In this document: positions 20,121 through 52,974 of the stretch, piece after piece | Layout: the number at the start of each line of letters is the position of its first letter | Position numbering within the stretch: the first letter of the stretch is position 1 | Virus record (IMG/VR): IMGVR_UViG_3300031853_000029 | Span: 6,657 to 70,656 of that record | Direction: 5' to 3' (one strand) | Source of the DNA: a virus | Taxonomy: Duplodnaviria > Caudoviricetes | Length of the DNA: 64,000 nt | Position numbers and translations under genes: made by a program | Notes under the pieces: generated by a model | The model's database searches: none | Seen by the model: only the letters and a program-made list of their open reading frames with translations | What the model was told of the DNA's origin: nothing

Positions 20121-20146
20121 CGCCGAAAAAGGCATTCATTTTATGG
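20121..20146 (+). promoter_or_regulatory. 26-bp repeated motif, copy 1
   Basis: CGCCGAAAAAGGCATTCATTTTATGG, followed directly by RBS. Confidence 0.6.
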
Positions 20147-20157
20147 AGGAAACTATA

Positions 20158-20379
20158 ATGACACTCAAGCAGTTAAAAGGCGTTGTAGATCAGCTTCTGA
20201 ACGAAGGGGCTGATCCAGGCGCCGAAATATACGACAGTGATCACCACTTTTTGGAAGAGATTTCGTATGCTGACATTGACTACGAAACCAACGGAAAGGG
20301 TGTTTATCTGGTCTTTTCGGAAGAAGTCGACGGAGGAGCTTGCGACAGCGATGATGCATGTGAATTCGACTTCGATTAA
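20158..20379 (+). CDS. Acidic hypothetical protein (moron-like cassette)
   Basis: GGAGG RBS, ATG 20158. Confidence 0.65.
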   Translation: MTLKQLKGVVDQLLNEGADPGAEIYDSDHHFLEEISYADIDYETNGKGVYLVFSEEVDGGACDSDDACEFDFD

Positions 20380-20409
20380 CTATTATATTTTGCAAGGAGA
20401 TGATCCAAC

Positions 20410-20898
20410 GTGGCTAAGCTGAAGCCCGAGCAGATCGTGGAGGACGCGATGTATGCTCTAAACAGCGGATGGGGTCATATCCGTGGAAAAACAGGCCAGG
20501 TCTGGACTGAAGAAGACCAAAAAGCCGCGGAGAACGCTCAGAACGGCTGTGAACAGACAAAGCTATACGGCAGGAAATGGATCGGCCAGAGAGTTGCGGA
20601 CAGCTGCGGACTTCTCTCCTGGATATTTTATCGCCACGGAGGATACATGCCCCACGGATGCAACAGTATCTATAATCGATACTGTGATCAGAAAGGCGAA
20701 CTGAAAGACGCTGAGGTCCTTCGGCCGGGGTGCCTCGTTTTCAAGCGGAATGAAAAATACGAAAACCCCATTTATCACGTAGGAATTTATGTCGGAGACG
20801 GAAAGGTTGTCGAATCCCACGGAACGGCCAAGGGCGTCATACAAAGCACCCTGTTCGGATGGAGTCATTACGGATATCCGAAGGGGGTTGAATGGTAA
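20410..20898 (+). CDS. Second NlpC/P60-like protein (DSCG variant)
   Basis: Paralogous to endolysin catalytic domain: WGHIRG, WIGQRVADSCGL, YHVGIYVGDGKVVESHG. Confidence 0.75.
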   Translation: MAKLKPEQIVEDAMYALNSGWGHIRGKTGQVWTEEDQKAAENAQNGCEQTKLYGRKWIGQRVADSCGLLSWIFYRHGGYMPHGCNSIYNRYCDQKGELKDAEVLRPGCLVFKRNEKYENPIYHVGIYVGDGKVVESHGTAKGVIQSTLFGWSHYGYPKGVEW

Positions 20899-21102
20899 GT
20901 GGGTATGGACAATTACGATACGTGGTTAAAAGTAGGCGGAAGTTTTCGATGTGGATGCTGCCTCAGGATGCCAACATTTGTCGATATTCGGGATCTGAAG
21001 GTCTGCCCGCATTGTCAGCATATAATGAACTGGTATGAAACAGATCACGGGTTACTCCCCATGAGGAACCAGGAAGGAGAAGATCGGCATGAAGAAGAGT
21101 AA
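20899..21102 (+). CDS. Small Cys-rich (zinc-ribbon) protein
   Basis: CGCC...CPHC. Confidence 0.5.
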   Translation: MGMDNYDTWLKVGGSFRCGCCLRMPTFVDIRDLKVCPHCQHIMNWYETDHGLLPMRNQEGEDRHEEE

Positions 21103-21355
21103 AAACCCCTACCCAATCAGCATGGGTGACGAAAGCGAGATTGTGAAAGACATTCAGGAGAGACTGGCCCTGCTCGGCAGCAAGGTGCAGGCAACCGGTA
21201 AATTCGGCATCGGGATGCTGAGCGCCGTGAAGAGCTGGCAGAGGAAGAACAAGCTCCAGGTGACGGGCAACGTCAGCGCGTTCCAGTACAACAAGCTGAT
21301 CACGATGACCGATCCGCTAAAGAAACCGGCTAAGAAATCCAGGCGAAAGGCCTGA
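21089..21355 (+). CDS. Stand-alone peptidoglycan-binding (PG_binding_1) domain protein
   Basis: MGDESEIVKDIQERL...GKFG...AVKSWQRKNKLQVTGNV. Confidence 0.75.
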   Translation: MKKSKNPYPISMGDESEIVKDIQERLALLGSKVQATGKFGIGMLSAVKSWQRKNKLQVTGNVSAFQYNKLITMTDPLKKPAKKSRRKA

Positions 21356-21376
21356 CACGTAACTTATATTCTGACT

Positions 21377-21411: not shown

Positions 21412-22427
21412 TGGAGGTTGACGTTAAGATGATTATATTCTACACTGATGCCGAGCACCTTGACAACTATAGATCTCCTCAGACGGAAGGGGAAAAGAAA
21501 ATGGACGACAATATGACCGTCATGGAATTTATAGAAGTATGGCTGGAAACCTTCAAGAAAAATTCAGTAAAGACTGCCTCATTCGAACGACTGGTAACGT
21601 CGAAAAAGTCGCTTGCCAATTACGAGATCGCAGAGAAAAAGATCGGTGACATCAACTTCTTTGATATTCAGAGGTATGTTAATCAGCTCGTGGAAGACGG
21701 ATACAGCCTGAGCAATATCAAAAAACAGCTGAGGATCGTTACTTCCCCACTGAAACTGGCTGCGGCCATGAAAATAATCAGGGCTGATCCGTCGATCGGC
21801 GTTAAGCTTCCGAACGAAACCAAAGTAAAAAAGCCGACGAAGGAAGTCGTCGCCTATACGAACGATGAACAGGAACGGCTGTTTAAGCGCGTTGCCGTCA
21901 GTCCGATGAACGCCGGGTACATGGGAATTCTCTTCATGATCGAAACAGGGCTCAGGAGCGGGGAACTGCTGGCGTTGAAGTGGAAGGACGTCGAGCTGGA
22001 TCGAAGCCGGCTGCATGTTCACGCGACCATACTAAATCCGATGAGCAACGTAAAAGCAGTCTATCAGGACTCGCCGAAGACCAAATGCAGTAACCGGATC
22101 GTTCCGCTGACGCCAAAAGCAAAGGCCATTTTGAAGAGACTGATAGAGGACCGGCAGACAGAATGGGTCTTCGAGGACAAGGGGAAGCGCTACAGCTATA
22201 AGCAGCTGATGTACCAGACAAAAAAGTTATGTCGGGAAGCCGGTGTAACCTACTATGGCGAGCATGTGTTTCGGCATACCTTTGCGACAAACTGCTACTA
22301 CAAAGGAATCGACGTGAAGATTCTGAGTAGGCTGATGGGCCACAGCAGTGTCAGCGTGACGTACAACACGTACATCAATCTGTACGGCGACGGCTTCGAC
22401 GAAATGTACGCTGCGCTTTGCCTGTAA
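21411..22427 (+). CDS. int: Tyrosine recombinase (phage integrase)
   Basis: TGLRSGELLAL (Arg I), HVFRHTFAT (His-x-x-Arg), LMGHSS...TYNTY (catalytic Tyr); start may be ATG 21501. Confidence 0.93.
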   Translation: MEVDVKMIIFYTDAEHLDNYRSPQTEGEKKMDDNMTVMEFIEVWLETFKKNSVKTASFERLVTSKKSLANYEIAEKKIGDINFFDIQRYVNQLVEDGYSLSNIKKQLRIVTSPLKLAAAMKIIRADPSIGVKLPNETKVKKPTKEVVAYTNDEQERLFKRVAVSPMNAGYMGILFMIETGLRSGELLALKWKDVELDRSRLHVHATILNPMSNVKAVYQDSPKTKCSNRIVPLTPKAKAILKRLIEDRQTEWVFEDKGKRYSYKQLMYQTKKLCREAGVTYYGEHVFRHTFATNCYYKGIDVKILSRLMGHSSVSVTYNTYINLYGDGFDEMYAALCL

Positions 22428-23897: not shown

Positions 23898-23923
23898 CGC
23901 TGAATTTACACCTTTCTTGGTGG
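23898..23923 (+). promoter_or_regulatory. 26-bp repeated motif, copy 2
   Basis: CGCTGAATTTACACCTTTCTTGGTGG. Confidence 0.6.
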
Positions 23924-24211: not shown

Positions 24212-24271
24212 TTCCTGATTGGCTTCGCGGAAACGCGCGGCCTTTTATTTTTTTGCCCAAAAGTCACACCT

Positions 24272-24297
24272 CGCGTAAATTACTACCCTCTTAATGG
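24272..24297 (+). promoter_or_regulatory. 26-bp repeated motif, copy 3
   Basis: CGCGTAAATTACTACCCTCTTAATGG. Confidence 0.75.
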
Positions 24298-24654: not shown

Positions 24655-24680
24655 CGCCGAAATTACACGTATCTTAATGG
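24655..24680 (+). promoter_or_regulatory. 26-bp repeated motif, copy 4
   Basis: CGCCGAAATTACACGTATCTTAATGG. Confidence 0.75.
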
Positions 24681-24816
24681 AGATATAATGTGCGGTATAA
24701 ACGCAGTGGAGGCTCCCTCGTGGAGGGATAGTTAGCCACGATACAATCGTCTAATGGTAGGACACCGGGCGATTCCGGAGACGTAGGTTCGAAGCCTACA
24801 GACATTATATTTTTTT
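24679..24816 (+). ncRNA. Candidate structured ncRNA with tRNA-like D- and T-arms
   Basis: Ends pair (ATATAATGT 24683-91 / ACATTATAT 24802-10) then U-tract; D-arm GTCTAATGGTAGGAC; T-arm GTAGG-TTCGAAG-CCTAC; no ORF; no acceptor stem. Confidence 0.6.
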
Positions 24817-24842
24817 CGCCGATTTTACACCTGTCATGATGG
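24817..24842 (+). promoter_or_regulatory. 26-bp repeated motif, copy 5
   Basis: CGCCGATTTTACACCTGTCATGATGG. Confidence 0.75.
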
Positions 24843-25033: not shown

Positions 25034-25071
25034 TATCCAAAAAGCGGTCGAAACGGACCGCTTAACTTTTT

Positions 25072-25097
25072 CGCCGATTTTACACCCGTCATGATGG
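25072..25097 (+). promoter_or_regulatory. 26-bp repeated motif, copy 6
   Basis: CGCCGATTTTACACCCGTCATGATGG, near-identical to copy 5. Confidence 0.75.
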
Positions 25098-25456: not shown

Positions 25457-25505
25457 CCAGTGAAAGGAGATCGTTATATTTCAACGGTCTCTTCTTTTTT
25501 TTTTT

Positions 25506-25531
25506 CGCGAAAAATACATACCTCTTGATGG
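25506..25531 (+). promoter_or_regulatory. 26-bp repeated motif, copy 7
   Basis: CGCGAAAAATACATACCTCTTGATGG. Confidence 0.75.
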
Positions 25532-25569: not shown

Positions 25570-25896
25570 ATGATGAACATCGAAGGAATGACCAAGTATC
25601 TGGAGGAAACTGGACTGGCGGAGCGCTTCAAGCATTTGAAGCCCGGCGACTCGTTTGGCGTTGAATTACCAATCGACGAAGAGAACAACAAGTGGTTACG
25701 GTTCTGGCTTTCGACTGAAGGCGAGAACGACGAGATCGACTATGTGACTCTCGACTTCGAAGGGCTAATTCGTGTCAGAGTTTGCTGTGACGAACAGAAA
25801 CTAGAGGACTGGCTCAACAACAGTGGAATCCTGGAGCTTGCGAAACTGGCCGACGAAGCTCAGGCCGAGACCGAAAAGGCGGAGACTAAGGAATGA
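25570..25896 (+). CDS. Acidic hypothetical protein
   Basis: AAGGAGG RBS before ATG 25570. Confidence 0.65.
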   Translation: MMNIEGMTKYLEETGLAERFKHLKPGDSFGVELPIDEENNKWLRFWLSTEGENDEIDYVTLDFEGLIRVRVCCDEQKLEDWLNNSGILELAKLADEAQAETEKAETKE

Positions 25897-25903
25897 CCCA
25901 ATT

Positions 25904-25943
25904 AGCGGAGACGTTGCGAAAGCAGCTCTCTGCTTTTCTTTTT
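25904..25943 (+). terminator. Terminator of repeated AAGCGGAGAC...TCTCTGCTTT family
   Basis: AGCGGAGACGTTGCGAAAGCAGCTCTCTGCTTTTCTTTTT; relatives at ~28088, ~28629, ~32992. Confidence 0.7.
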
Positions 25944-25969
25944 CGCCGATTATACACGGTTCTTAATGG
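25944..25969 (+). promoter_or_regulatory. 26-bp repeated motif, copy 8
   Basis: CGCCGATTATACACGGTTCTTAATGG. Confidence 0.75.
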
Positions 25970-26226: not shown

Positions 26227-26252
26227 CGCGAAAAATACATACCTCTTGATGG
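26227..26252 (+). promoter_or_regulatory. 26-bp repeated motif, copy 9
   Basis: CGCGAAAAATACATACCTCTTGATGG, identical to copy 7. Confidence 0.75.
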
Positions 26253-26380
26253 AGAGCCGGCCTATCTTAAGGCAAAGGAGGTTAAAAGAGATTATCTGGC
26301 GATCATGTGAAGGGAGATAACCCGAAGTAGCGGTATGCGCAACCGCGAAACGGACGATTCTCCCGTTTCTTTTTCTTTCA
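26251..26380 (+). ncRNA. Candidate small RNA cassette
   Basis: Motif then ~130 nt lacking an RBS-led ORF; hairpins GCGGT/ACCGC and GAAACGG/CCGTTTC plus U-tract. Confidence 0.35.
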
Positions 26381-26405
26381 AACGAACAAGAAAGGAGGAA
26401 ACGGT

Positions 26406-27141: not shown

Positions 27142-27729
27142 ATGCCAAATTGGGCCACAGGAACGATTAAAATTCGCGGAACCAGAGAAAATATTCTGAA
27201 GTTTTGTCAGGAAGAGCTGAGTGAACGAGCAAGCACTAAAGATGAAGAAGCTAGACGTGTCGAATGGGAGCTCGATCTTGCTGATTCGGATTACGATCAT
27301 GGCGATCTCATAGCTACCGTGCATAATGATCCGAGTCTGTGCATCTGGTTCAAGGACAGCAGAAGAAACTTTATTGAAATGGACACCGAGGTTCCGTACT
27401 ATTGGGATATGGAAAACGACGGGGAAACTTATGCCACGACTTTCACGTTTTACAAGCTTCCAAAAGAATCGGATTACTGCATTGTTTTCCCATTTATGGC
27501 CGCATGGGGCGTTGACGAGGACTACTATGCCGAGATAAGCAAAAAATACAAACTCTCCTTCAGAGTTTATACCGTTGAGCAGGGTATGGGATTCTTTTCG
27601 GAGTTTATTGCCGAGAATGGAGAAGTAACGTTCCTTTCTTCCGGGCCTAATATGGAGAAAGAATGGAGCCCCTCAAATACGTACGGACAGTTCGTTTGGG
27701 AATGCCCCTTCCCGTTTCTTGGAGGTTAA
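27142..27729 (+). CDS. Hypothetical protein (MPNW-type, YubB/DUF1281-like)
   Basis: MPNWATGTIKIRG...F..AWG pattern; AAGGAGG RBS. Confidence 0.6.
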   Translation: MPNWATGTIKIRGTRENILKFCQEELSERASTKDEEARRVEWELDLADSDYDHGDLIATVHNDPSLCIWFKDSRRNFIEMDTEVPYYWDMENDGETYATTFTFYKLPKESDYCIVFPFMAAWGVDEDYYAEISKKYKLSFRVYTVEQGMGFFSEFIAENGEVTFLSSGPNMEKEWSPSNTYGQFVWECPFPFLGG

Positions 27730-27738: not shown

Positions 27739-27764
27739 CGCGAAAAAAGCATCCCTCTTAATGG
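27739..27764 (+). promoter_or_regulatory. 26-bp repeated motif, copy 10
   Basis: CGCGAAAAAAGCATCCCTCTTAATGG. Confidence 0.75.
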
Positions 27765-27796: not shown

Positions 27797-28078
27797 ATGG
27801 CAAAGGAAAGATTCAAGTTTTATCTGGCGATGGATCAGGAAGCCCCCAAAGACGAGAAGAGATTCCAGGAGAGTATGACGGCGGCATACGTGAACGGAAT
27901 CGAGCCGATCGAGTATCGTGAAGATACGGTGCTCGATACTCGAGACAACACGGTCGTAAAAACGATCATCCTGCTGAAATGTACGGAGCGTTGGAACGGG
28001 GCATCAAAGCGGTTCTTCAAGAAGGCAAAATTTGAGTACCTGAACCAGAAGGTAGACGGACTGCCTGTGTTCGGATGA
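27797..28078 (+). CDS. Hypothetical protein
   Basis: AAGGAGG RBS before ATG 27797. Confidence 0.65.
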   Translation: MAKERFKFYLAMDQEAPKDEKRFQESMTAAYVNGIEPIEYREDTVLDTRDNTVVKTIILLKCTERWNGASKRFFKKAKFEYLNQKVDGLPVFG

Positions 28079-28156
28079 GATTCCAAAAAGCGGAGACGCG
28101 GCAAATGCTGCTCTCTGCTTTCTTTTTTTCAAAAATGTCACATCCGGTTACTAATT

Positions 28157-28182
28157 CGCCGAAATTACCATCATCTTTATGG
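28157..28182 (+). promoter_or_regulatory. 26-bp repeated motif, copy 11
   Basis: CGCCGAAATTACCATCATCTTTATGG. Confidence 0.75.
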
Positions 28183-28212: not shown

Positions 28213-28350
28213 ATGATGGAACTTAATGCCGTTATTATTGTAAGTATGATTATATTTACTTTGATTGGTGGAGGAATTGTAACACTCGAACAAAAAATAG
28301 AAGAACTCAAAAGAGAAAGAAAAAGAAAGGATTACTGGTATCGGGTATAA
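28213..28350 (+). CDS. Small membrane protein (45 aa)
   Basis: TM segment plus basic tail; AAGGAG RBS. Confidence 0.55.
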   Translation: MMELNAVIIVSMIIFTLIGGGIVTLEQKIEELKRERKRKDYWYRV

Positions 28351-28378
28351 TGCTCGGTACCTTTATTTTTCAACGCTT

Positions 28379-28404
28379 CGCGTAAATTACCGGCCTCTTT
28401 ATGG
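28379..28404 (+). promoter_or_regulatory. 26-bp repeated motif, copy 12
   Basis: CGCGTAAATTACCGGCCTCTTTATGG. Confidence 0.75.
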
Positions 28405-28446: not shown

Positions 28447-28623
28447 ATGGAATTTAAATTCAAGTTTGACAATTTGGACGAGCTGAATGCGTGGTTCGAC
28501 TTCTGCTGCACGCGTTGCGCAATGTGCAATCGCGAATACGGCAAAGTGGACCCCTGCTCGACCTGCAAGGCAAACAAGGTTTATGAAACCAGAAGAAAGG
28601 AAATCGAAGAAGGAGGCAAGTAA
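28447..28623 (+). CDS. Small Cys-rich protein (58 aa, not in ORF track)
   Basis: AAGGAG RBS; MEFKFKFDNL...CCTRCAMC...CSTC; followed by terminator. Confidence 0.6.
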   Translation: MEFKFKFDNLDELNAWFDFCCTRCAMCNREYGKVDPCSTCKANKVYETRRKEIEEGGK

Positions 28624-28668
28624 TTCCCAAAAGCGGATGCGCTGCAAATGCAGCCATCTGCTTTTCTT

Positions 28669-28694
28669 CGCGGAAAATACATCTCTCTTAATGG
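28669..28694 (+). promoter_or_regulatory. 26-bp repeated motif, copy 13
   Basis: CGCGGAAAATACATCTCTCTTAATGG. Confidence 0.75.
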
Positions 28695-28933: not shown

Positions 28934-28965
28934 AGACTCGGAGGGCTTCTTGTCCTCCCCTTTTT

Positions 28966-28991
28966 CGCGGAAATTACATGCCTCCTAATGG
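28966..28991 (+). promoter_or_regulatory. 26-bp repeated motif, copy 14
   Basis: CGCGGAAATTACATGCCTCCTAATGG. Confidence 0.75.
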
Positions 28992-29251: not shown

Positions 29252-29310
29252 CCGCTGGCGGACACAGTTCCGCCTTTTTTCTTTTCCAATCGACTGAAAG
29301 GGGAAAAAGA

Positions 29311-29727
29311 ATGAGCAAGAAGTTTTATGCGATCTTTCACGGCTACGATACGGACGGAGGATTTGGAGACGCCATTCCTCAGGAAACAATGATGGGCATC
29401 GTCGAGGCGACTGAAGAAGAGATCGAAGCGTTCATTAAGAAATGGGACAAGCCTGTCGTTTATGATCATCCTTATGACGATCTGTGCTGTCACAACGTTC
29501 GGGCTGAAGAGATCAAGATCTGCGATCTTAACACGCTGAATCCGTACGGCAAACGAGATTATTACGGCCTTTGGGCCAAGATGTATGAGTTTGGAGAAGC
29601 TTTCAAGGCCCAGCACGGTGATAACTGGAATCAATCTGATAAGCATGATGAGCTTTATGAGCTTTACTCCAACGGTCTGGAAGAAATCCGAAGGAAACAT
29701 GCGGAGGAGCATAATGAATCGATCTGA
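29311..29727 (+). CDS. Hypothetical protein
   Basis: ATG 29311 after AAGGGG. Confidence 0.6.
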   Translation: MSKKFYAIFHGYDTDGGFGDAIPQETMMGIVEATEEEIEAFIKKWDKPVVYDHPYDDLCCHNVRAEEIKICDLNTLNPYGKRDYYGLWAKMYEFGEAFKAQHGDNWNQSDKHDELYELYSNGLEEIRRKHAEEHNESI

Positions 29728-31317: not shown

Positions 31318-31760
31318 CAGCGCAAAAACGATTCAGGCCCACGCCGTGCCCTGACTGCGGCACGAAGCCCAGCCTGTGGGAGGTCACTTTTTTCGGATAC
31401 AGGTCTCCGAAATTCAAGGTTGAATGCCCGGAATGCAAGAAAAAGACGAACTTTTATGATACGGCCCGCGGTGCCGCTTCCGCATGGGAGCGAGGGACCT
31501 ATATGATTCCCAGGGAGGACCGGGAGAATCTCGACAACGACAGCATTGCGGAGCTCATGGGAAAAATCATGGAAGAAATAAATAAGGATTACCAGCGGAT
31601 CGCTTCCGGGCACACCCCGTCCAGATGGGAAAGGACATATATTAAAGAACTTGAAGAATTCGTGATTGAAAATCCGTACATGCTCCCCTACGACCGGGAA
31701 TACGTCGTCGAAGAGATGAGGCGGCAAGCTGAAAAAACGCGAAAAAAGCAGGCTTCTTAA
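31314..31760 (+). CDS. Lar-like (restriction alleviation) zinc-ribbon protein
   Basis: PTPCPDCG...VECPEC...A..AW pattern in N-terminal half. Confidence 0.5.
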   Translation: MTAQKRFRPTPCPDCGTKPSLWEVTFFGYRSPKFKVECPECKKKTNFYDTARGAASAWERGTYMIPREDRENLDNDSIAELMGKIMEEINKDYQRIASGHTPSRWERTYIKELEEFVIENPYMLPYDREYVVEEMRRQAEKTRKKQAS

Positions 31761-31763
31761 TGG
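31738..31763 (+). promoter_or_regulatory. 26-bp repeated motif, copy 15
   Basis: CGCGAAAAAAGCAGGCTTCTTAATGG, overlapping the end of the upstream CDS. Confidence 0.7.
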
Positions 31764-32590: not shown

Positions 32591-32616
32591 CGCGAAAAAA
32601 GCACGCCTCTTAGTGG
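32591..32616 (+). promoter_or_regulatory. 26-bp repeated motif, copy 16
   Basis: CGCGAAAAAAGCACGCCTCTTAGTGG. Confidence 0.7.
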
Positions 32617-32652: not shown

Positions 32653-32982
32653 ATGGGAGAGAACGGAACGAAGAAGGTAACTGGTATTCCTGAGAACGAA
32701 ACCCTGCTTCAGAAAGCGAAGCGGAAGGCCATGACGGCCGTGAACTGGGGCAAAACCCACTGGAAGGGGCTCGCGATCGGCGCGGTTGCCATCGGCGGAG
32801 GAGCATACATGCTCAGCCGGCGGGGCAGCAATGACGATGGAGAGACTGTTCCAAGCGGATATGCCCTCGGGGACGGAGAGACCGCCCGCGAGGCGATTAA
32901 CAGGGTATTCGACTCGGAAACCGGCGACGGATCCGACATCGGACCCGATGACGATGAACCCGACGAAGTTGATGAATATTGA
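32653..32982 (+). CDS. Membrane-anchored protein with acidic tail
   Basis: GLAIGAVAIGGGAYML glycine-zipper TM; AAGGAGG RBS. Confidence 0.65.
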   Translation: MGENGTKKVTGIPENETLLQKAKRKAMTAVNWGKTHWKGLAIGAVAIGGGAYMLSRRGSNDDGETVPSGYALGDGETAREAINRVFDSETGDGSDIGPDDDEPDEVDEY

Positions 32983-33053
32983 TGACCCGACAAGCGGAGA
33001 CGCTGTGTAAGCAGCTCTCTGCTTTTCTTTTCGACCGGGGAGGAGCGCAGAAT

Positions 33054-34055
33054 ATGCTGGTACACAAGAATGGAGACAGTGAAGATATTCTTGGCTTTAT
33101 ATGCGATATGTGCACCACCTTTACTTCCATGGACGTTATTCCCAACGAACACGGGGAATTTCGTTATATTTGTCCCAAGTGCGGACACAAGATGAAGGAA
33201 ACGCTCGAGACGGAGACAAATGAGGAGGAAACAAAAATGGTAAATGCTTACACGGTATCGAACGCGGCGAAAAGACTTAATTGCTGCGCGTCTACAGTTG
33301 TCAGGGCGATTCAGGACGGCAGATTCCATGACTGTTTTATGGAGACCGGTTATCACGGACGGCCTGCGTGGATGATTCCCAGCGACCAGGTCGAAGAATG
33401 GGTCAGCAAAGGCGGGTTCCTTCAGACTACGAGTCCCAAAAGCAAGTTTATGAGTCGCAGCCAGGTACGGGCAGCGCTTGAGAAGGCGAAGGAAGAAGCT
33501 GCCAGCAAGCAGAAGAAAGCCAACGTTACCGGCGAGACTATTGCTAAACGCGACGCAAGCGGAAAGCCTATTGCCGGACGTTACCCCTGGGACAAAGACG
33601 AAAACGTAAGGAAGGTGTTCGATCCTGAGATCGGGAAGGACGTGCCGGTGCTGGATCTGCTGAGCGAGGAGGACCGGAAGCCTGTGCCCGAGCCTGCTCC
33701 CGCCAGGCCGATGAACGAATTCGAGAAGCGGGCTGTGCGCAGGGTCGCCGGACAGAAATATGTAAAGGTGTTGGACAGGACGACGAAGGAGAAAATGGAG
33801 GAGATCAAGATGGAGAACGTTCGCAATAAAGAGATCCTGAAGAACTTTGCTGAGGAAACACCGTTCCTTCCTGTGAATCCGGGCCCGGTGGTACGGACGG
33901 ATAACGGCTTTGCCATCACCTTCCCTGCCGAGCTGATCAATGACATGGTGCAGAAGCAGCTCAAGGGCGAGATCGCCGGCCGGCTGGCTCAGCTTCGGGC
34001 AGCGTTTGACCAGATGAACGAGGAGCTGAAGAAGCTGGAGGAGGTGATCGCATGA
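33054..34055 (+). CDS. Zinc-ribbon plus excisionase-like HTH protein
   Basis: CDMC/CPKC then YTVSNAAKRLNCCASTVVRAIQDG...WMIP; internal RBS and ATG at ~33237. Confidence 0.65.
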   Translation: MLVHKNGDSEDILGFICDMCTTFTSMDVIPNEHGEFRYICPKCGHKMKETLETETNEEETKMVNAYTVSNAAKRLNCCASTVVRAIQDGRFHDCFMETGYHGRPAWMIPSDQVEEWVSKGGFLQTTSPKSKFMSRSQVRAALEKAKEEAASKQKKANVTGETIAKRDASGKPIAGRYPWDKDENVRKVFDPEIGKDVPVLDLLSEEDRKPVPEPAPARPMNEFEKRAVRRVAGQKYVKVLDRTTKEKMEEIKMENVRNKEILKNFAEETPFLPVNPGPVVRTDNGFAITFPAELINDMVQKQLKGEIAGRLAQLRAAFDQMNEELKKLEEVIA

Positions 34056-39756: not shown

Positions 39757-39770
39757 AGAAGGTGTAAAAC

Positions 39771-40260: not shown

Positions 40261-40286
40261 CGCGAAAAAATCACCTCTCGTTATGG
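40261..40286 (+). promoter_or_regulatory. 26-bp repeated motif, copy 17
   Basis: CGCGAAAAAATCACCTCTCGTTATGG. Confidence 0.7.
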
Positions 40287-44496: not shown

Positions 44497-44522
44497 CGCG
44501 AAAAAAGCAGTGTTGTTTATGG
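44497..44522 (+). promoter_or_regulatory. 26-bp repeated motif, copy 18
   Basis: CGCGAAAAAAGCAGTGTTGTTTATGG. Confidence 0.7.
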
Positions 44523-44559
44523 AGATGGTAAATGCGAAACAACCATCTCTTTATTTTTT
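44522..44559 (+). terminator. Leader terminator / attenuator directly after motif
   Basis: GAGATGGT...ACCATCTC then TTTATTTTTT. Confidence 0.65.
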
Positions 44560-44585
44560 CGACAAAGGAAGGAGAAACACGAAAC

Positions 44586-45551
44586 ATGGGAATCGCACTG
44601 GTGAAGAAGGTTATCTGGATCGGTAAGAAGTATGCTCCGGAAATTCTTACCTACGGTGGACTGGCAGTGATGGGCGTAGGAACGGTGTTTGCCTGCAAGC
44701 AGACGCCAAAGGCTATTGCGATCGTGGAAGACACGAAGAAGCAACTGGCCGTGATCAAGGGAACTGAAGAGGAAGCCGAGAAGAACGACCGCAAGGTGAA
44801 CCGCAACGGCGGTCTGATCAGCTATTCCGAGCAGGACTTCAAGAAGGACATTACGATTGCTCACGTCAACAACATTAAAGCGCTGGCGAAGACGTACGCC
44901 GTCCCTGGACTGATGCTGATCGGCGGTACGGCCATGGTGCTTGGTGGGCACGGTATTCTGAGAAAGCGGAACGCTGTGGCGATTGCGACGCTGAGCAGCG
45001 TGATGGAAGGCTTCAACAAGTACCGCAGCAACGTCATCAAGGAGCTCGGGGAAACCGCGGACAAGCATTTCCGGTTCGGCAAGGGTACGCCGGACATCGT
45101 CGAAACGGTGGACGCCGAAAGCGGTGAGGTAACACAGGAGAAATCGAGTACGGACGGATTCGCCGATTTTCCGGAAGACGATCCGAGATTCTTCATCTAC
45201 AGCAAGGAAACCTCTCCCGATTTCTACAAGGGAAATCTGCTGATGGATCTGGCTAACCTGCGGTCTTTCCAGAATCACGCGGACGATATGCTGCACATTG
45301 ACGGGAACATCAATGTAAATCAGATCCGCAAGATCTGCGGCGTGAAGCCCATTGATGAAGGTCTGGACAACGGGTATGTGGTGGACGGAAACGGCGACGG
45401 GTATGTGGACTTCGGCATCTTCGACCGGGTGACCGGCGAGCCCAAGGCCTGGGTGTATGAATGCGTGAAGGAAGGTCAGGGTATTCCGATCGAGCTGAAC
45501 ATCGACGGCAACATTAAGGGTCTGCTGAAGCGGCCAAGGAATGCGAGGTGA
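44586..45551 (+). CDS. DUF6353-like protein, paralog 2
   Basis: KKYAPEILTYGG.AVMGVGTVFACKQT...YAVP...GHGILRKRN...F.KYR.NV. Confidence 0.75.
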   Translation: MGIALVKKVIWIGKKYAPEILTYGGLAVMGVGTVFACKQTPKAIAIVEDTKKQLAVIKGTEEEAEKNDRKVNRNGGLISYSEQDFKKDITIAHVNNIKALAKTYAVPGLMLIGGTAMVLGGHGILRKRNAVAIATLSSVMEGFNKYRSNVIKELGETADKHFRFGKGTPDIVETVDAESGEVTQEKSSTDGFADFPEDDPRFFIYSKETSPDFYKGNLLMDLANLRSFQNHADDMLHIDGNINVNQIRKICGVKPIDEGLDNGYVVDGNGDGYVDFGIFDRVTGEPKAWVYECVKEGQGIPIELNIDGNIKGLLKRPRNAR

Positions 45552-46817: not shown

Positions 46818-49800
46818 GTGAGCTTTTTCTCTGTACTTAGCAGGGAAGTGAAGAAGGGCGTCTATGAAGTTTATCCTGATTTCGACGTAGATCGGCCCAC
46901 CGATTTAATGACCAGAGGACGACACTTCTATGCGATGTGGGATGCAAATCTCGGCATGTGGACGCAGGACGTTTTCGATGTCGTGCAGACTGTTGACAAG
47001 GCTGTGCGTCAGAAAGCCGACGAACTGCAGGCCGCGCTTCCGTCAGCAACCGTTAAGATGAAGCTGATGCGGAATTTCCAGAGCAAAGTCTGGAGCGAGT
47101 TCTCCAATTATATTAACAAGCTTCCCGACCATTTCGTTCCTCTGGACAGCAAGCTGACCTTCGCCAACACACCGCTCGGGAAGAAGTCCGATTATATTTC
47201 CAAGAAACTCCCCTACTCTCTTGAGGAAGGCGACTACAGTGCGTGGGACGAGCTGATGGCCAAATTATATTCTCCGACAGAACGGCAGAAGATCGAATGG
47301 GCTATCGGCAGTGTCATTGCCGGAGAGGCAAAGAAGATCCAGAAGTTCATCGTGCTGTACGGCGAAGGCGGCAAGGGAAAAGGCACTGTGATCGGAATCC
47401 TTGACAAGCTCTTTCAGGGTTATACGACCGCGTTCAATGCAAAGGCACTGACGTCCAACTCCAACCAGTTTGCGACAGAAGCGTTCAAGGGAAATCCGCT
47501 CGTGGCCTTTCAGCATGATGGCGACCTTTCCAAAATTGAAGATAACACCCAGCTGAACAGCATAGTTTCGCACGAACCGATGGTGATCAACGCTAAGTAT
47601 GAATCACCATACACGGCCAAGCCGATCTGCATGCTGTTTCTCGGAACCAACAGCCCGGTCCGGATTACCGATGCGAAGAGCGGAATTATTCGACGGCTGA
47701 TCGACGCGGAACCAACAGGAGACACCTTCGATGGAGTCAAGTATGAAGTGCTGATGGACCGGATCGGCATGCAGCTCGGAGCGATCGCTTTCCACTGCCT
47801 ATCCGTTTATCGGAAGCTCGGAAAGCACTTCTATGATCAGTACAGGTCGCTGAAGATGATGTACAAGACTGATCTATTCTTCAACTTCGTGGAGGAAAGC
47901 TACACGATCTTCAAGGAACAGGATTCGACGACGCTGAAGGCCGCCTACGCCATGTACAAGGAATACTGCGAGGAGAACGGCAGCACTTCCAGCACGATGA
48001 TGCGGATCAAGTTCCGGGAAGAGTTGAAGAACTACTTCAGGGAATTCTATCCGATAACACGTGTCGACGGCAAACAGGTGCGCAGCTACTTCAAAGGTTT
48101 CCGGTCCGAAAAGATCGACGATGGAACTGAGGCTGAGCGGGCCGAGAAAGCCCAGAAGGAAGCGGTTCCAAATTGGCTGGTGCTGGACCAGACGGAAAGC
48201 CTGCTGGATGAGGTGCTGAAGGACTGCCCGGCGCAGTATGCCAGGGAGGATAACGAAGCGCCGTATGTCTCCTGGGACAAATGCACCAAGACGCTGAAGG
48301 ATCTGGATACCAGACGGACACACTACGTCAATATTCCGGAAAGCATGAAGCTGATCCACTTCGATTTTGATCTGAAGGATGAGAACGGAAACAAAAGCGC
48401 GGAAAGGAATATTGAGGCAGCCAACAAGCTTCCGCCGACCTATGCAGAGTATTCAAAAGGCGGAGCAGGAATCCACACAACCTATTATTACGATGGAGAT
48501 CAGAGCAAACTGGCCCTGGTTTATGAGCCGGGAATCGAAATCAAGGTAAGCACCGGAGGCAACAGTCTCAGACGTAAGCTCAGCCTGTGCAACAATCTGC
48601 CGATCGCTCACATCTCCAGCGGCCTGCCATTAAAGGAGGAGAAAGTGATCGACTTTACCACGATTGAAGATGAGAAGCATCTGATTGCTCTGATTGAAAA
48701 GAATCTTAATAAGAAGATTGTGCCTTCCACACATCAGAGCGTTGGGCTGATCAAGAACGATCTGGATACCTTCTATAAGAGCGGAAAGCATTACGATGTT
48801 CGAAGCTATAAGAAGAAGGTGATGCAGTTTGCGGCGAACAGCACCAACCACAGCCCGGAATGTTTGAAGATGGTAACTTCAATGAAATGGCACAGCGACG
48901 ACGTGACCGACCCGAAGGAGGTCGGAGAAGAGGATGAAATCGTGAACGATGAACGGTTAGCATTCTTTGACGTGGAAGTCTTCCCTAACCTCTTCCTGAT
49001 TAACTGGAAGTTCGCCGGAGAACCTGGATGCAAACGGATGATCAACCCGACACCACAGGATCTTGAGGAGTTTATTCATCTGAAGCTGGTTGGGTTTAAC
49101 TGCAGGCGGTACGACAACCATATCGTTTATGCCCGGTATCTGGGGAAGGCCAACCAGGAACTGTATGACCTTTCGCAGCGGATTATCAACGGCGATCCAG
49201 ACGCGTTCTTCGGTAAGGCCTATGACCTGTCCTACACGGATGTGTATGACTTCTGCTCCAAAAAGCAGAGCCTGAAGAAATGGGAGATCGAGCTGGATAT
49301 TCATCACCAGGAGCTGGGCCTGCCCTGGGATCAGCCGGTGGATGAAAGCCTGTGGGGGAAGGTGGCAGAGTATTGCGACAACGATGTAATCGCAACGGAA
49401 GCCGTTTTCAATGCCAGGCAGGATGACTGGAAGGCTCGGAAGATTCTGGCAAGGCTGGCCGGTCTCAACGTAAACGCAACTACCAACCAGCTGACTCAGA
49501 AAATTATATTTGGCTGGGAGAAGAAGCCTCAGGGTGCCTTCAATTATCGCTTTATGGGCGAAATGGAGGATTACGAGACCTACAGCATGCCCTGGGAGGA
49601 TGACAAGGAGTTCACCTTATTCGGACCCGACGGCAAGCCCGTGTTCCCCGGATACACCTTCGATAACGGCAAGAGCATGTACCGCGGTGAAGAGGTCGGA
49701 GAAGGCGGATACGTTTATGCAGAGCCAGGCATGTACTGGAATGTGGCGCTGCTGGACATCGCAAGCATGCACCCAAGCAGCATTGTGGCGGAAGACCTGT

Positions 49801-50738
49801 TTGGCCCCGAGTACACCAGGCGGTTCCATGATATTCTCGACGCCCGTCTGCTGATCAAGCACCGGGAATGGGATAAGGCGCGGAAGATCCTGGACGGAAA
49901 GCTGGCGCCATTCCTGGAGGGTATGGAGAACCTCAGCGAGCAGGAACAGAAGGCGGAGGCCGATAATCTGAGCAGCGCGCTGAAGATCGCGATCAACTCG
50001 GTTTATGGCCTGACCAGTGCGAGGTTTGTGAATCCGTTCCGGGATGTGCGGAACAAGGACAACATCGTCGCCAAGCGCGGAGCTCTATTCATGATCAACC
50101 TGAAACACCTTGTACAGGCTAAGGGATTCACGGTGGCCCATATCAAGACAGATTCTATCAAAATACCGAATGCCACGCCGGAGATTATTCAGTATGTGAT
50201 GGATTACGGAAAGTTGTACGGCTATACCTTCGAGCATGAGAGCACCTACGACCGGATGTGTCTGGTGAATAACGCCGTGTATGTGGCCCACGTGGAAAGC
50301 GGAAAGCATGCAGGAGAGTGGAACACCACGGGAGCCCAGTTCGCAGAACCTTATGTGAAGAAAACTCTGTTCACAAGAGAGCCGATCACATTCAGGGATC
50401 TGTGTCAGACGAAGACCGTGACCACCAACATGTACCTGGATACGAATGAGGACATGCCTGAGGGGCATCACAACTATCATTTCGTCGGAAAAGCAGGAAG
50501 CTTCTGCCCGATCAAGCCTGGCCGCGGAGGCGGATGGTTGGTTCGCCAAAAGGACGACAAGTATGACGCCGTAACCGGAACCAAGGATCAGCGGTGGCTT
50601 GAGGCCGAGACGGTGAAGAATCTCGGAATCGAAGACGCGATTGACCGCAGCTATTTTGACCGCCTGGTCGAAGAGGCCGTTCATGATATCTCGCAGTACG
50701 GTGATATCGAAGTATTTAGAACATTGGAGGGAAGCTGA
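46818..50738 (+). CDS. Fused SF3 helicase - AEP-like primase - 3'-5' exonuclease - family B DNA polymerase
   Basis: Walker A GEGGKGKGT; FDFDLKD and SKGGAGIH (primase); FFDVEV and GFN..RYD (exo); DIASMHPS, KIAINSVYG, IKTDS (PolB A/B/C). Confidence 0.88.
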   Translation: MSFFSVLSREVKKGVYEVYPDFDVDRPTDLMTRGRHFYAMWDANLGMWTQDVFDVVQTVDKAVRQKADELQAALPSATVKMKLMRNFQSKVWSEFSNYINKLPDHFVPLDSKLTFANTPLGKKSDYISKKLPYSLEEGDYSAWDELMAKLYSPTERQKIEWAIGSVIAGEAKKIQKFIVLYGEGGKGKGTVIGILDKLFQGYTTAFNAKALTSNSNQFATEAFKGNPLVAFQHDGDLSKIEDNTQLNSIVSHEPMVINAKYESPYTAKPICMLFLGTNSPVRITDAKSGIIRRLIDAEPTGDTFDGVKYEVLMDRIGMQLGAIAFHCLSVYRKLGKHFYDQYRSLKMMYKTDLFFNFVEESYTIFKEQDSTTLKAAYAMYKEYCEENGSTSSTMMRIKFREELKNYFREFYPITRVDGKQVRSYFKGFRSEKIDDGTEAERAEKAQKEAVPNWLVLDQTESLLDEVLKDCPAQYAREDNEAPYVSWDKCTKTLKDLDTRRTHYVNIPESMKLIHFDFDLKDENGNKSAERNIEAANKLPPTYAEYSKGGAGIHTTYYYDGDQSKLALVYEPGIEIKVSTGGNSLRRKLSLCNNLPIAHISSGLPLKEEKVIDFTTIEDEKHLIALIEKNLNKKIVPSTHQSVGLIKNDLDTFYKSGKHYDVRSYKKKVMQFAANSTNHSPECLKMVTSMKWHSDDVTDPKEVGEEDEIVNDERLAFFDVEVFPNLFLINWKFAGEPGCKRMINPTPQDLEEFIHLKLVGFNCRRYDNHIVYARYLGKANQELYDLSQRIINGDPDAFFGKAYDLSYTDVYDFCSKKQSLKKWEIELDIHHQELGLPWDQPVDESLWGKVAEYCDNDVIATEAVFNARQDDWKARKILARLAGLNVNATTNQLTQKIIFGWEKKPQGAFNYRFMGEMEDYETYSMPWEDDKEFTLFGPDGKPVFPGYTFDNGKSMYRGEEVGEGGYVYAEPGMYWNVALLDIASMHPSSIVAEDLFGPEYTRRFHDILDARLLIKHREWDKARKILDGKLAPFLEGMENLSEQEQKAEADNLSSALKIAINSVYGLTSARFVNPFRDVRNKDNIVAKRGALFMINLKHLVQAKGFTVAHIKTDSIKIPNATPEIIQYVMDYGKLYGYTFEHESTYDRMCLVNNAVYVAHVESGKHAGEWNTTGAQFAEPYVKKTLFTREPITFRDLCQTKTVTTNMYLDTNEDMPEGHHNYHFVGKAGSFCPIKPGRGGGWLVRQKDDKYDAVTGTKDQRWLEAETVKNLGIEDAIDRSYFDRLVEEAVHDISQYGDIEVFRTLEGS

Positions 50739-51049
50739 TGGCTATGACCAGAAAGGAGCTGCTGGATAAGGCATGCTCCATTGTGAACGGCGCACGTGAC
50801 AAAAGCTACGGGTCGCCAGAAGACAGTTTTAAATGCATCGGGAAGATGTGGAATGCTTATCTCGGGAGGCGGCTTATGAAGCCGCTGTCCCCATCGGATG
50901 TGGCGGCCATGATGAGCCTGCTGAAGATCGCCAGGATCAGCTCCGGAATTTATTCCGAGGACAGCTGGATCGACCTAGCCGGGTATGCTGCTTGCGGCGG
51001 CGAGTGCGCAAGCTTTGAGCACGAGGACCGGGAGGATAAAGAGACATGA
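50738..51049 (+). CDS. DUF6378-like protein
   Basis: R..SYGSPEDSF..I..MW.AYL...VA.MM.LLKIAR...DSWIDLAGYA. Confidence 0.7.
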   Translation: MAMTRKELLDKACSIVNGARDKSYGSPEDSFKCIGKMWNAYLGRRLMKPLSPSDVAAMMSLLKIARISSGIYSEDSWIDLAGYAACGGECASFEHEDREDKET

Positions 51050-51204
51050 CGGTTGCTCAGCTTCGTGCACTTTTGAACTGGATGCCAGTGAGCGCAGAAG
51101 TAACTGATAGCTTTGGTAATACGATTACCGACGTTGTCTTGGACGATGATTGCCTAAAAGTTCAGCTCGGAATCAACAACATTCACGACAAAAACGAAGA
51201 TTAA
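51046..51204 (+). CDS. Small hypothetical protein (52 aa, not in ORF track)
   Basis: GGAGG RBS, ATGA coupling. Confidence 0.5.
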   Translation: MTVAQLRALLNWMPVSAEVTDSFGNTITDVVLDDDCLKVQLGINNIHDKNED

Positions 51205-51220
51205 AAGGAGAAAGAGAAAA

Positions 51221-51730
51221 ATGGAAAAGACGATTACAATTCGTGACGCTCAGATTGCCCCTTACAAGTTCCGTAATTTTGAAGGTCGGGAAACCGAGTA
51301 CAACAGAGCCGGCGCCCGCAACTTTGTTATATTCCTAGACAAAGCCCTGGCTCAGCAGCTTGAGGCGGACGGTGCGCCGGTTATCTGGAAACCCGATCGC
51401 TACAATGAGGGCGAACTTCGTGCTCAGATGAAGGTCCATGTGAAGTATTACAATCGCAAGGGCGAGAAGATGACCCCTCCGAAGGTCGTGCTGATCACCA
51501 GAAAGAAGCAGACCAAGCTGACGGAAGATACAATCAGTCTGCTGGATACGGCGGACATCGCCAAATGCGATCTGATCCTCAGCCAGTATCCGAATCCAGG
51601 TTCCATGGGTCCGGAGAATTCTGTAAGTCTGAAGACCATGTATGTTACTTTGGCCGAAGACGAGTTTGCCGAGGAGTACGAAACGGACGACGTGCCTTTT
51701 GCGGCTGGGTCTGAAAGCGAGCCTTGGTAA
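51221..51730 (+). CDS. Probable single-stranded DNA-binding protein
   Basis: FRNFEG...RNF, beta-rich OB-like body, acidic C-tail ending DDVPF...W; in replication module. Confidence 0.65.
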   Translation: MEKTITIRDAQIAPYKFRNFEGRETEYNRAGARNFVIFLDKALAQQLEADGAPVIWKPDRYNEGELRAQMKVHVKYYNRKGEKMTPPKVVLITRKKQTKLTEDTISLLDTADIAKCDLILSQYPNPGSMGPENSVSLKTMYVTLAEDEFAEEYETDDVPFAAGSESEPW

Positions 51731-52917
51731 AACTATACCCCCACCAAAGGGATGCAGTCTGGCGGATGCACAACGGCTGCATCCTGGTGGGCGGGGTCGG
51801 CAGCGGAAAGAGCATTACGTCGCTGGCCTATTATTATATTCGTGAGTGCGGCGGATGCCTCGAGCCCGAAAAGCCAATGACGCACCCAAAGGATCTCTAC
51901 GTCATTACGACAGCCAGAAAGCGGGATACGCTTGAATGGAAGGCGGAGATGCTTCCCTTCTGCCTGCAAGAGTACGACATTCAGGTAACGATCGACAGTT
52001 GGAACAACGTACACAAGTATGTGGATGTTGAGAATGCTTTCTTTATATTTGACGAGCAGCGTGTCGTCGGGACTGGAACGTGGGCAAAGAGCTTTGTTAA
52101 AATCGCAAAGCGCAACCGATGGATCCTGCTCTCGGCCACGCCCGGCGACACCTGGTCTGATTATATTCCAGTCTTTGTGGCAAATGGCTACTATAGGAAT
52201 CCAACTGACTTCCGCAACCAGCATGTGATTTATGCCCGGTTCAGCAAATACCCGAAGATTGACAAATACGTGGCCGTAAGAAAACTGCAGAAGATTCGGG
52301 ACAAGGTGCTCGTCAATATGGATTACAGTCGGAAGACCTCGTGCGTGTATGAGTACATCCAGCCGATGTATGACCGGGATCAGTATTTATTTGTAAACAG
52401 GAATCGGTGGAACCCATATAAAAATGAGCCGCTTGTAAATGCCGGCGAGCTTTGCCTCACGCTTCGGCACATTGTCAACAGCGATCCGAGTCGATTGGCG
52501 AAGCTGACCGATCTGATGATGAAGCATCCGAGAGCAATTATATTTTACAACTTCGACTATGAGCTCGAGATGCTCCGAGGATGGGCGAAGAAGAACATGC
52601 TCACTTATGGAGAGTACAACGGCCATCATCACGATCCGATTCCAGAAGGAGAAAGCTGGGCTTACCTCGTTCAGTATACTGCCGGCGCAGAAGGATGGAA
52701 TTGCACGCTGACGGATACAGTGATATTTTACAGTCTGAACTACAGTTACAAAACAATGGTGCAGGCGGCCGGAAGAATCGATCGGCTGAACACGCCTTAC
52801 CAGACGCTATACTATTATCGCTTTGTTTCCTCTGCCCCGATCGATCTGGCGATCCGGCGGGCTCTAAAGGATAAGAAGAATTTTAATGAGTCGGCTTTTG
52901 TCGGGAGTTTGACGTGA
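51724..52917 (+). CDS. SF2 (SNF2-like) helicase
   Basis: LYPHQ, GGVGSGKS, FIFDE, LLSATP, AEGWN, QAAGRIDR. Confidence 0.85.
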   Translation: MVKLYPHQRDAVWRMHNGCILVGGVGSGKSITSLAYYYIRECGGCLEPEKPMTHPKDLYVITTARKRDTLEWKAEMLPFCLQEYDIQVTIDSWNNVHKYVDVENAFFIFDEQRVVGTGTWAKSFVKIAKRNRWILLSATPGDTWSDYIPVFVANGYYRNPTDFRNQHVIYARFSKYPKIDKYVAVRKLQKIRDKVLVNMDYSRKTSCVYEYIQPMYDRDQYLFVNRNRWNPYKNEPLVNAGELCLTLRHIVNSDPSRLAKLTDLMMKHPRAIIFYNFDYELEMLRGWAKKNMLTYGEYNGHHHDPIPEGESWAYLVQYTAGAEGWNCTLTDTVIFYSLNYSYKTMVQAAGRIDRLNTPYQTLYYYRFVSSAPIDLAIRRALKDKKNFNESAFVGSLT

Positions 52918-52948
52918 TTCTTACAGGAAAAGTGTGACAGTTTTTTTT

Positions 52949-52974
52949 CGCGAAGTTTACAGCGTTCTTTATGG
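52949..52974 (+). promoter_or_regulatory. 26-bp repeated motif, copy 19
   Basis: CGCGAAGTTTACAGCGTTCTTTATGG. Confidence 0.7.

Follow-up and report, generated by a model that had tools for sequence, protein, structure and literature searches.

A fixed-register motif of about 30 bp as a candidate promoter for the single-chain RNA polymerase of an integrase-bearing supercluster siphophage

Dedicated promoters for phage polymerases are already known as a kind, and single-chain polymerases of the two-barrel type (YonO and the phage enzymes that resemble QDE-1) are taken to model the ancestral form from which all cellular RNA polymerases descend. With respect to how these enzymes find their promoters, only the motifs of Thermus phage P23-45 have been mapped, and P_YonO of SPbeta, which is read by the single-chain two-barrel polymerase YonO, is undefined in sequence (PMC5467207). 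In P23-45, ONT-cappable-seq and ChIP-seq assigned an AT-rich motif to the virion polymerase gp96 and a GC-rich motif to the non-virion polymerase gp64; these motifs stand before pre-early and early genes, and the host polymerase reads the later genes (PMC10770324). Here, we describe a 64,000-nt stretch of phage DNA (hereafter, the window), bases 6657-70656 of the single 70.7-kb (70,656-bp) virus contig IMGVR_UViG_3300031853_000029, in which every gene lies on the + strand, a short motif recurs 19 times ahead of genes and putative non-coding RNAs, and a 972-aa protein of the QDE-1/YonO class is encoded. We consider it probable that the motif is the promoter of this polymerase and that transcription would start at the GG with which the motif ends.

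The 19 motif starts had been listed in an initial annotation of the window as a fixed-length, + strand series. When position 1 is set at the C of CGC, all 19 fall into one fixed register without a single insertion or deletion from CGC to GG (Table 1). In leave-one-out scoring with a position weight matrix covering positions -2 to +29, 18 copies reach 25.7-40.0 bits, compared with a top score of 17.9 bits over 50 shuffles of the 70.7-kb contig, and only the copy at 20121 is marginal, at 11.9 bits. The list is also complete: throughout the contig, and again when the scan was repeated with the matrix of the wider motif family described below, no other + strand site exceeds 8.1 bits and no - strand site exceeds 9.0 bits, and the matrix finds no copy in the 6.6 kb of contig beyond the window, nor does the 33-kb structural module contain one. 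The refined consensus is TTCGCSRAAAWTRCA-N4-TCTTNATGGAGR, with conservation extending 2 nt upstream (TT) and approximately 3 nt downstream (AGR) of the 26 bp originally delimited, to give about 30 bp overall. The motif family contains differing 3' blocks, for example TCTTAATGG versus CTATAATGG, and an exact search with the phage's own variant returned no match in IMG/VR and none in GTDB genomes.

Table 1. Coordinates of the motif copies, the predicted polymerase and its conserved neighbour (window numbering)
Feature	Coordinates	Strand	Details
Motif copy, marginal	20121..20146	+	11.9 bits, not above shuffles; ACA block shifted 1 nt
Motif copy before 90-aa ORF at 23939	23898..23923	+	30.7 bits; intergenic
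Motif copy before 100-aa ORF at 24334	24272..24297	+	32.1 bits; after terminator 24225-24240
Motif copy before ORF-less cassette (RNA 24679-24816)	24655..24680	+	38.6 bits
Motif copy before 59-aa ORF at 24854	24817..24842	+	30.8 bits; sole SD = motif GGAGG
Motif copy before 115-aa ORF at 25109	25072..25097	+	31.6 bits; after terminator 25042-25063; sole SD GGAGG
Motif copy before 108-aa ORF at 25570	25506..25531	+	36.8 bits; after terminator 25465-25493
Motif copy before 74-aa ORF at 25981	25944..25969	+	34.9 bits; after terminator 25918-25937; sole SD GGAGG
Motif copy before 155-nt untranslated stretch, then ORF 26406	26227..26252	+	40.0 bits
Motif copy before 93-aa ORF at 27797	27739..27764	+	37.1 bits; after hairpin 27697-27714
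Motif copy before 45-aa ORF at 28213/28216	28157..28182	+	33.9 bits; after hairpin 28098-28111 + T tract
Motif copy before 58-aa ORF at 28447	28379..28404	+	33.6 bits; after terminator 28337-28361
Motif copy before 67-aa ORF at 28730	28669..28694	+	37.0 bits; after hairpin 28641-28654
Motif copy before 75-aa ORF at 29024	28966..28991	+	32.1 bits; after terminator 28940-28958
Motif copy before 103-aa ORF at 31792	31738..31763	+	25.7 bits; overlaps stop codon of ORF ending 31760
Motif copy before 109-aa ORF at 32653	32591..32616	+	33.7 bits; intergenic
Motif copy before 70-aa ORF at 40300	40261..40286	+	26.5 bits; sole SD GGAGG; orthologous copy in G001
Motif copy before DUF6353 gene 44532-45551	44497..44522	+	29.9 bits; orthologous copy in G001
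Motif copy heading nuclease-exonuclease-RNA polymerase operon	52949..52974	+	32.6 bits; 1018 nt upstream of polymerase start
Predicted single-chain two-barrel RNA polymerase, presumed motif reader	53967..56885	+	972 aa; QDE-1/YonO class
Small conserved ORF after polymerase gene	56926..57156	+	phrog_4303 4.6e-15; same place in all relatives

The copies occupy the gaps between genes. Seventeen of the 19 are wholly intergenic in a region (20-53 kb) where intergenic DNA makes up only 13%, and 16 of the 29 intergenic gaps of at least 40 nt contain one; of the remaining two copies, that at 31738 reaches 23 nt into the end of the upstream open reading frame (ORF), and that at 28157 falls within an ORF call that is itself doubtful and includes a terminator. 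The statement that most copies follow a terminator was borne out, with a terminator-like hairpin directly upstream of 12-13 sites, and hairpins with T tracts are enriched in the 20-33.5 kb region (35 observed, 13.2 expected). The marginal copy at 20121 sits at the tail/lysis boundary, between a strong terminator (20069-20095) and the lysis genes (20158; NlpC/P60 20410).

The GG at the end of the motif had also been noticed to begin a ribosome-binding site or an RNA helix, and both were found. The motif's GGAGG (positions 25-29) is the sole Shine-Dalgarno (SD) sequence of the genes at 20158 (an ATG), 24854, 25109, 25981 and 40300, each with its start codon 13-15 nt past G25 (13 nt for the ATG behind copy 24817), and its GGAG is the sole SD at 44532. 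Start codons fall 10-44 nt past G25 at 17 sites, and none is nearer than 10 nt. In the unit downstream of the copy at 24655, where no + strand ORF of at least 20 aa is present, positions 24679-24816 correspond to a 138-nt structured RNA (minimum free energy -46.3 kcal/mol, z = -3.3) with a T-arm-like hairpin (GGTTCGAAGCC). Nucleotides 24680-24691 of this RNA pair with 24802-24813, just ahead of a U tract, a pairing that fits a 5' end at the GG only weakly, because the Watson-Crick core of the helix begins only at 24684. ARAGORN and Rfam recognized nothing in this RNA or elsewhere in the window; its putative non-coding RNAs therefore fit no known family. The 155 nt behind the copy at 26227 (26251-26405) contain no ORF and carry a terminator-like hairpin with a U tract before the SD of the ORF at 26406; this stretch (z = -1.85) possibly yields a short RNA or acts as a leader of the attenuator type. 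Additionally, four related 50-nt terminator units (GCGGAGACG..GCAGCTCTCTGCTTTTCTTTT), distinct from the promoter motif, occur at 25893-25942, 28078-28127, 28621-28670 and 32982-33031, which suggests that terminators, too, are shuffled as modules.

The motif is conserved well beyond this phage. A relative designated G001, with a polymerase 88% identical and a nucleotide identity of approximately 75-80%, covers 34-64 kb of the window and keeps three orthologous copies (40261, 44497 and 52949); the flank upstream of the copy at 40261 is too diverged to be aligned. More distant relatives, with polymerases approximately 45% identical, share the register C1 G2 C3 ... A11 C12 A13 ... T19 W20 T21 W22 R23 T24 R25 G26, on the coding strand only, and the family consensus takes forms such as TTCGCAAA and TTCGTAAA. 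The complete 94.8-kb genome G006, whose polymerase is 45% identical, has 25 copies on the + strand and none on the - strand (TTCGCAAAWWWWACA-N4-YTWTAATRG); the corresponding counts are 12 and 0 in Lactococcus phage 1706 (YRCAWSTTTTACA-N4-CTATAGTAGAAAG), 8 and 0 in Arthrobacter phage Arcadia (CGCGTAAATTACA-MGGG-CTATAATRR), and 7 and 0 in Streptomyces phage Bilo, a genome of 61% GC (TCGCAnGTTTTWCC-N4-TTATAATGAGACC). The string CGCGTAAATTAC is common to some Arcadia copies and to the copies at 24272 and 28379 here. In each of these relatives, the copies begin right after the tail/lysis genes and are concentrated among small genes, with none in the structural module, and in approximately 40 of 46 IMG/VR relatives, one copy stands 900-1100 nt upstream of the polymerase gene (this polymerase-operon copy is at 54112 in Arcadia and 39550 in Bilo). 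The upstream block is near-identical in phages of Actinomycetota and Bacillota; because the hosts of phages with the same motif span two phyla, the motif requires a conserved reader that the phages themselves encode. A de novo motif search in the most divergent polymerase clade (37-40% identity; L041, L044, L047, L049 and MT835495) gave nothing clear.

Linkage to the polymerase gene was observed in all five polymerase-carrying genomes examined, each of which has a motif array, and in a search of IMG/VR with the exact family pattern. Among records at least 90% complete with at least two same-strand matches, seven of seven encode the polymerase, and the pattern-bearing records without it are fragments of 8-63% completeness; of the large records with a single exact match, 21 of 24 encode a full polymerase, and one record lacking it (G030) has a match at chance level only. 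The other two are the large contigs G032 (86.7 kb) and G043 (88.7 kb), in which 12 and 13 copies, respectively, occur but no polymerase. The DNA polymerase is likewise absent from both, and no helicase, nuclease or exonuclease was found at their ends (9 kb and approximately 6.7 kb examined per end). In G006, these last three genes form one right-end block with the polymerase, and G043, which keeps synteny with G006 starting at the left end of the genome, breaks off at a point corresponding to approximately 81 kb, before this block, and is therefore truncated. We infer that G032 and G043 are both truncated contigs, the synteny having been examined for G043 only. CheckV rates the two as 99-100% complete; for this phage group, its estimates can hide a missing right end. 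The relatives of approximately 90 kb also have a separate small ORF homologous only to polymerase residues ~618-679 (G006 51351-51518, L067; G043 29271-29471, L186, 133 aa in the latter), which may be a domain copy or a remnant.

The presumed reader, on the strength of profile and structure-model matches, is a two-barrel (double-psi beta-barrel) RNA polymerase of the QDE-1/YonO class with predicted activity. It matches phrog_4291 ('RNA-dependent RNA polymerase') with E = 0 and contains the catalytic sequence GADFDGD (DFDGD, residues 549-553, 55611-55625), in which GADxDGD is invariant in an alignment with 22 IMG/VR homologues of 42-89% identity. A helix-turn-helix (HTH) domain lies near the N terminus (~54282-54365; Pfam HTH_23, 1.3e-10) and another at the C terminus (~56757-56876; further HTH models). 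The match to Pfam RdRP (1.8e-4, 20.8 bits) is below the 23.8-bit cut-off. The AlphaFold model, with a mean pLDDT of 78, matches QDE-1 in Foldseek with E 2.8e-8 and a probability of 1.00, at a TM-score of only ~0.30, and the non-virion polymerases of two Thermus phages, P74-26 and P23-45, with 6e-5 and 1e-4; it also matches plant RDR2 and P23-45 gp96 and, weakly, gp66 of the crAss-like phage phi14:2 and beta' subunits. By sequence (phmmer and profile searches against PDB), only weak HTH matches appeared, among them sigma region-4-like ones at E 0.12-0.26, not significant. A DxDGD scan of the contig gave no second protein of this kind, and neither a second nor a tape-measure-fused polymerase was found.

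Homologues of approximately 45% identity, mostly annotated 'HTH DNA-binding domain protein', are the last large gene in siphophages of Arthrobacter, Gordonia, Streptomyces, Rhodococcus, Microbacterium, Lactococcus (1706-like), Faecalibacterium and the human gut; the polymerase is the signature gene of this large phage group, which extends to gut and rumen Clostridia. The cross-phylum supercluster has been described, and the protein was proposed as a putative RNA polymerase without mention of a promoter (Koert et al., bioRxiv 10.1101/842583); among approximately 10 universally shared genes, the polymerase is the sole DNA-binding or transcription protein (bioRxiv 10.1101/842583). The small ORF that follows it (counterparts in the same position: Arcadia gp97, Bilo gp58 and 1706 orf76) was listed there as a conserved hypothetical (bioRxiv 10.1101/842583) and could be an accessory factor. 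Every polymerase homologue also has a conserved N-terminal peptide, L-x-H-Y-G-T-P-R-H-S-G-R-Y-P-W-G-S-G (54039-54110, residues ~25-48), in a segment of low model confidence that is probably disordered. Less strict versions (H-x-G...W-G) are found at two other N termini, those of the ORF that precedes the terminase (59414) and of the ORF in the portal position (62103). This peptide, which we did not find in the literature searched, could be a capsid-targeting signal, with a bearing on how the first polymerase enters the cell; the seven genes annotated as structural in the 1706 record do not include the polymerase, orf75.

A close described counterpart is P23-45, likewise a siphophage with a QDE-1/YonO-class polymerase and a repeated motif before pre-early and early genes, with late structural genes lacking the motif. 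The two nevertheless differ: the polymerase here belongs to another clade, carries an HTH domain at either terminus and could not be linked by sequence similarity to any solved structure, the motif sequence is another one, a single polymerase without tape-measure fusion takes the place of two, and the present system is predicted from sequence. Promoters of the T7/T3/SP6 type are approximately 23 bp long (-17 to +6) and are read by a single-subunit polymerase. The motif described here resembles them in being contiguous and asymmetric, in its layout of a putative upstream recognition part and an A/T-rich melting part just before the putative +1, in the co-orientation of its many copies with the genes, and in its conserved purine-rich start (GGAGR, versus GGGAGA in T7); it differs in being longer and bipartite with a 4-nt variable spacer, in heading early, replication and polymerase genes and not late genes, and in the fold of its presumed reader, which is two-barrel and unrelated to the right-hand fold. 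YonO has no BLAST-detectable relationship to the polymerase here and reads one late operon. When 55-80 kb of SPbeta (NC_001884.1) was scanned with the family matrix, the yonO-yonK region, with the mapped YonO start site between yonN and yonK, reached 11.6 bits at best, whereas the maxima of the shuffles averaged 14.1. As the YonO region lacks the motif, the motif goes with the clade that bears HTH domains rather than with YonO itself.

The comparative evidence favors the reading preferred in the initial annotation, in which the phage RNA polymerase uses the motif as its promoter and the GG of ATGG supplies +1, and we propose that the promoter would operate as follows. The upstream block TTCGCSRAAAWTRCA (about -26 to -12) would be recognized by its sequence, with the HTH domains fused to the polymerase as the most plausible binders; the A/T-rich TCTTNAT (-7 to -1) would be melted; and RNA would begin at the GG, such that every transcript starts with GGAGR. 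Expression of the small early genes, of the replication genes and of two cassettes that encode RNA only would thereby be driven by the motif, as would that of the polymerase operon, with positive feedback in this last case, and a hairpin with a U tract would close most units. The structural module is probably served otherwise; sigma-A-like hexamers, kept in G001, precede the structural operon (TTGACG-17-TAGACT at 57312-57340 and TATAAT at 57405-57410). In a stronger form of this proposal, the single-chain polymerase with its built-in sigma-like HTH modules would alone recognize a double-stranded promoter of approximately 30 bp, start at GG and work across phyla, possibly after delivery in the virion. 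We hold this form tentatively, as quite possible though short of probable. Virion delivery would explain why one promoter class heads both the early genes and the polymerase gene.

Recognition by the host enzyme deserves the closest attention. A sigma-A/sigma-70 promoter has a TTGACA-like -35 element, a spacer of 17 +/- 1 nt and a TATAAT -10 element with A-11 and T-7, and A-11 is the most critical -10 base. The motif does not have this form: the TTCGCR-like block is 14 nt from the hexamer (positions 19-24) in every genome, the hexamer of this phage is CTTNAT with a T at position 20, the A-11 counterpart, in 15 of the 19 copies, and sigma-70-like hexamer pairs are not enriched (19 observed, 16.3 expected). 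When TTTACA or ATTACA was taken as the -35 element, the downstream hexamers fell at inconsistent distances; the sole hexamer pair, at site 24655 (ATTACA-16-TATAAT), was taken as chance, and in 1706, TTTACA (a 5/6 match to -35) is 5 nt from TATAGT. The claim that there is no -35/-10 consensus thus stands for this phage but not for most relatives, in which the 3' block is TATAAT. To our knowledge, none of the consensus sequences of sigB, sigD, sigH, the sporulation sigmas, the extracytoplasmic-function sigmas or sigma-54 fits the motif, and none of the ORFs scanned shows a sigma-factor domain. A different version has the multi-subunit host polymerase redirected by a phage factor on the upstream block, in which case the phage polymerase would read something else, for example a single late promoter as in SPbeta. 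At the middle promoters of T4, MotA and AsiA replace -35 recognition at a box approximately 12-14 nt from the -10 element, and the geometry of the motif resembles that of the MotA box, with an upstream box at such a distance from a TATAAT-like hexamer in place of a -35 element. This explanation would account for the perfect TATAAT of most relatives and for the host-type intrinsic terminators closing the units, and it poses no bootstrapping problem for early genes or for prophage induction, the integrase being intact. However, the A-11 equivalent is T in most copies here and varies between A and T within G006 and among orthologous polymerase-operon copies; no MotA- or AsiA-like genes were found; no small transcription factor is common to the supercluster, the polymerase being its only shared DNA-binding protein; the upstream block is near-identical across two phyla of hosts; and the inferred start lies directly past the hexamer, since a sigma-A start approximately 7 nt past it would cost five genes their only SD and the start must therefore lie at or before G25. 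We consider host-polymerase reading unlikely, though it is the main rival of the phage-polymerase promoter.

The phage-polymerase promoter itself meets several difficulties, which weigh against it together with the two arrays lacking a polymerase. Because the motif heads the polymerase operon, the first polymerase molecules would need another source, perhaps read-through from upstream, a host promoter or the virion; host sigma-A could take part in the relatives that have a TATAAT block; and classical intrinsic terminators, such as those at the unit ends here, are known to act on multi-subunit polymerases. Moreover, the characterized relative YonO of SPbeta reads only late, not early, genes (PMC5467207), and the yonO-yonK region lacks the motif by the family matrix. 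The two other explanations raised at the outset fare worse. An operator array for a phage repressor, overlapping promoters of another kind, has a precedent in SPBRE, a 15-bp element repeated in approximately 10 early promoter regions of a temperate Bacillota phage and bound by MrpR, a catalytically dead tyrosine-recombinase-like repressor, beside sigma-A promoters (PMC10516654). The present phage carries an integrase and is presumably temperate, and several copies contain an 8-bp palindrome, TTCGCGAA; the palindrome was rejected as a dimer site, being absent from the family consensus. An operator would leave the sites without any underlying promoter, as no sigma-A promoter is present at them; the recombinase (21429-22427) keeps its catalytic R, H-x-x-R, H and Y, unlike MrpR; 1706, Arcadia and Bilo, annotated without integrase, keep the motif, and no repressor is annotated save one 'putative repressor' ORF in 1706; and the asymmetric 3' block with its fixed SD distance suggests a start site. 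We regard an operator array as very improbable. Recombination or cassette-shuffling sites, that is, short homologies exchanging single-gene cassettes with no role in expression, would fit the cassette-like layout of terminator, motif and one small gene, the near-identical copies (25506 and 26227 are the same across 26 nt, and 24817 and 25072 are 89% alike over 47 nt), and the gene content between copies, which differs among relatives. Such sites would leave unexplained the strict orientation and fixed register, the GGAGG that serves as ribosome-binding site at a fixed distance, and the copy before the core polymerase operon in approximately 40 relatives, and we give this explanation almost no weight; exchange between repeated promoters would more probably be a by-product.

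We found neither a promoter for this polymerase clade nor the motif itself described in the literature searched, and such promoters are unmentioned in the supercluster, Arthrobacter and Rhodococcus phage papers. With a conserved 30-bp motif in fixed register that is linked to the polymerase, there is now a candidate promoter open to direct testing, and 1706, Arcadia and Bilo are cultivable. The present phage adds a natural variant with a 3' block that no longer resembles TATAAT, which helps to separate recognition by the phage enzyme from that by host sigma-A, as well as an integrase-bearing member and the truncation explanation for the two apparent exceptions. If the self-contained system were real, it would provide the first promoter consensus for this polymerase clade and a compact orthogonal expression system for both Bacillota and Actinomycetota.

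The phage is an integrase-bearing siphophage of the Lactococcus 1706 / Arthrobacter / Streptomyces "supercluster", and because G001 crosses from the end of the contig into its start, the contig is a permuted, near-complete genome. Its gene order runs from the tape measure (69-6416) and tail genes (to 20054) through the lysis genes, the tyrosine integrase and approximately 25 kb of small genes to a 1306-aa helicase-primase-polymerase (46818-50738), SSB, a helicase, a nuclease, a Cas4-like exonuclease, the 972-aa protein, the small conserved ORF, a conserved GC-rich non-coding stretch, the terminase and the portal. The integrase (Pfam Phage_integrase, 2.9e-27) sits between the lysis genes and the early region, and an excisionase-like HTH_17 domain lies within a 333-aa protein (33054-34055). 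A DNA search for near-identical sequence, run with 20-33 kb against a set of 50,697 phage records, gave no match, a polymerase search in GTDB genomes found no relative, and looking up one cassette protein returned only a 1.6-kb multi-gene Logan contig. Two paralogous DUF6353 genes are present (36558-37364 and 44532-45551; E 4e-33 and 5e-32), the second of which, with the motif copy at its head, has its start codon within a hairpin followed by a T tract. The 701-nt gap at 39249-39949, to which the initial annotation had assigned a tRNA-shaped RNA, contains neither an ORF nor a motif copy. Just past the polymerase operon, the GC-rich stretch of approximately 85 nt with hairpins (57205-57290) is near-identical in G001, against a genome average of approximately 80% identity. 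The loop of its hairpin at 57211-57240 resembles the upstream block of the motif, a likeness that is not conserved in G001 and was set aside; the stretch is a probable cos/pac or genome-end element.

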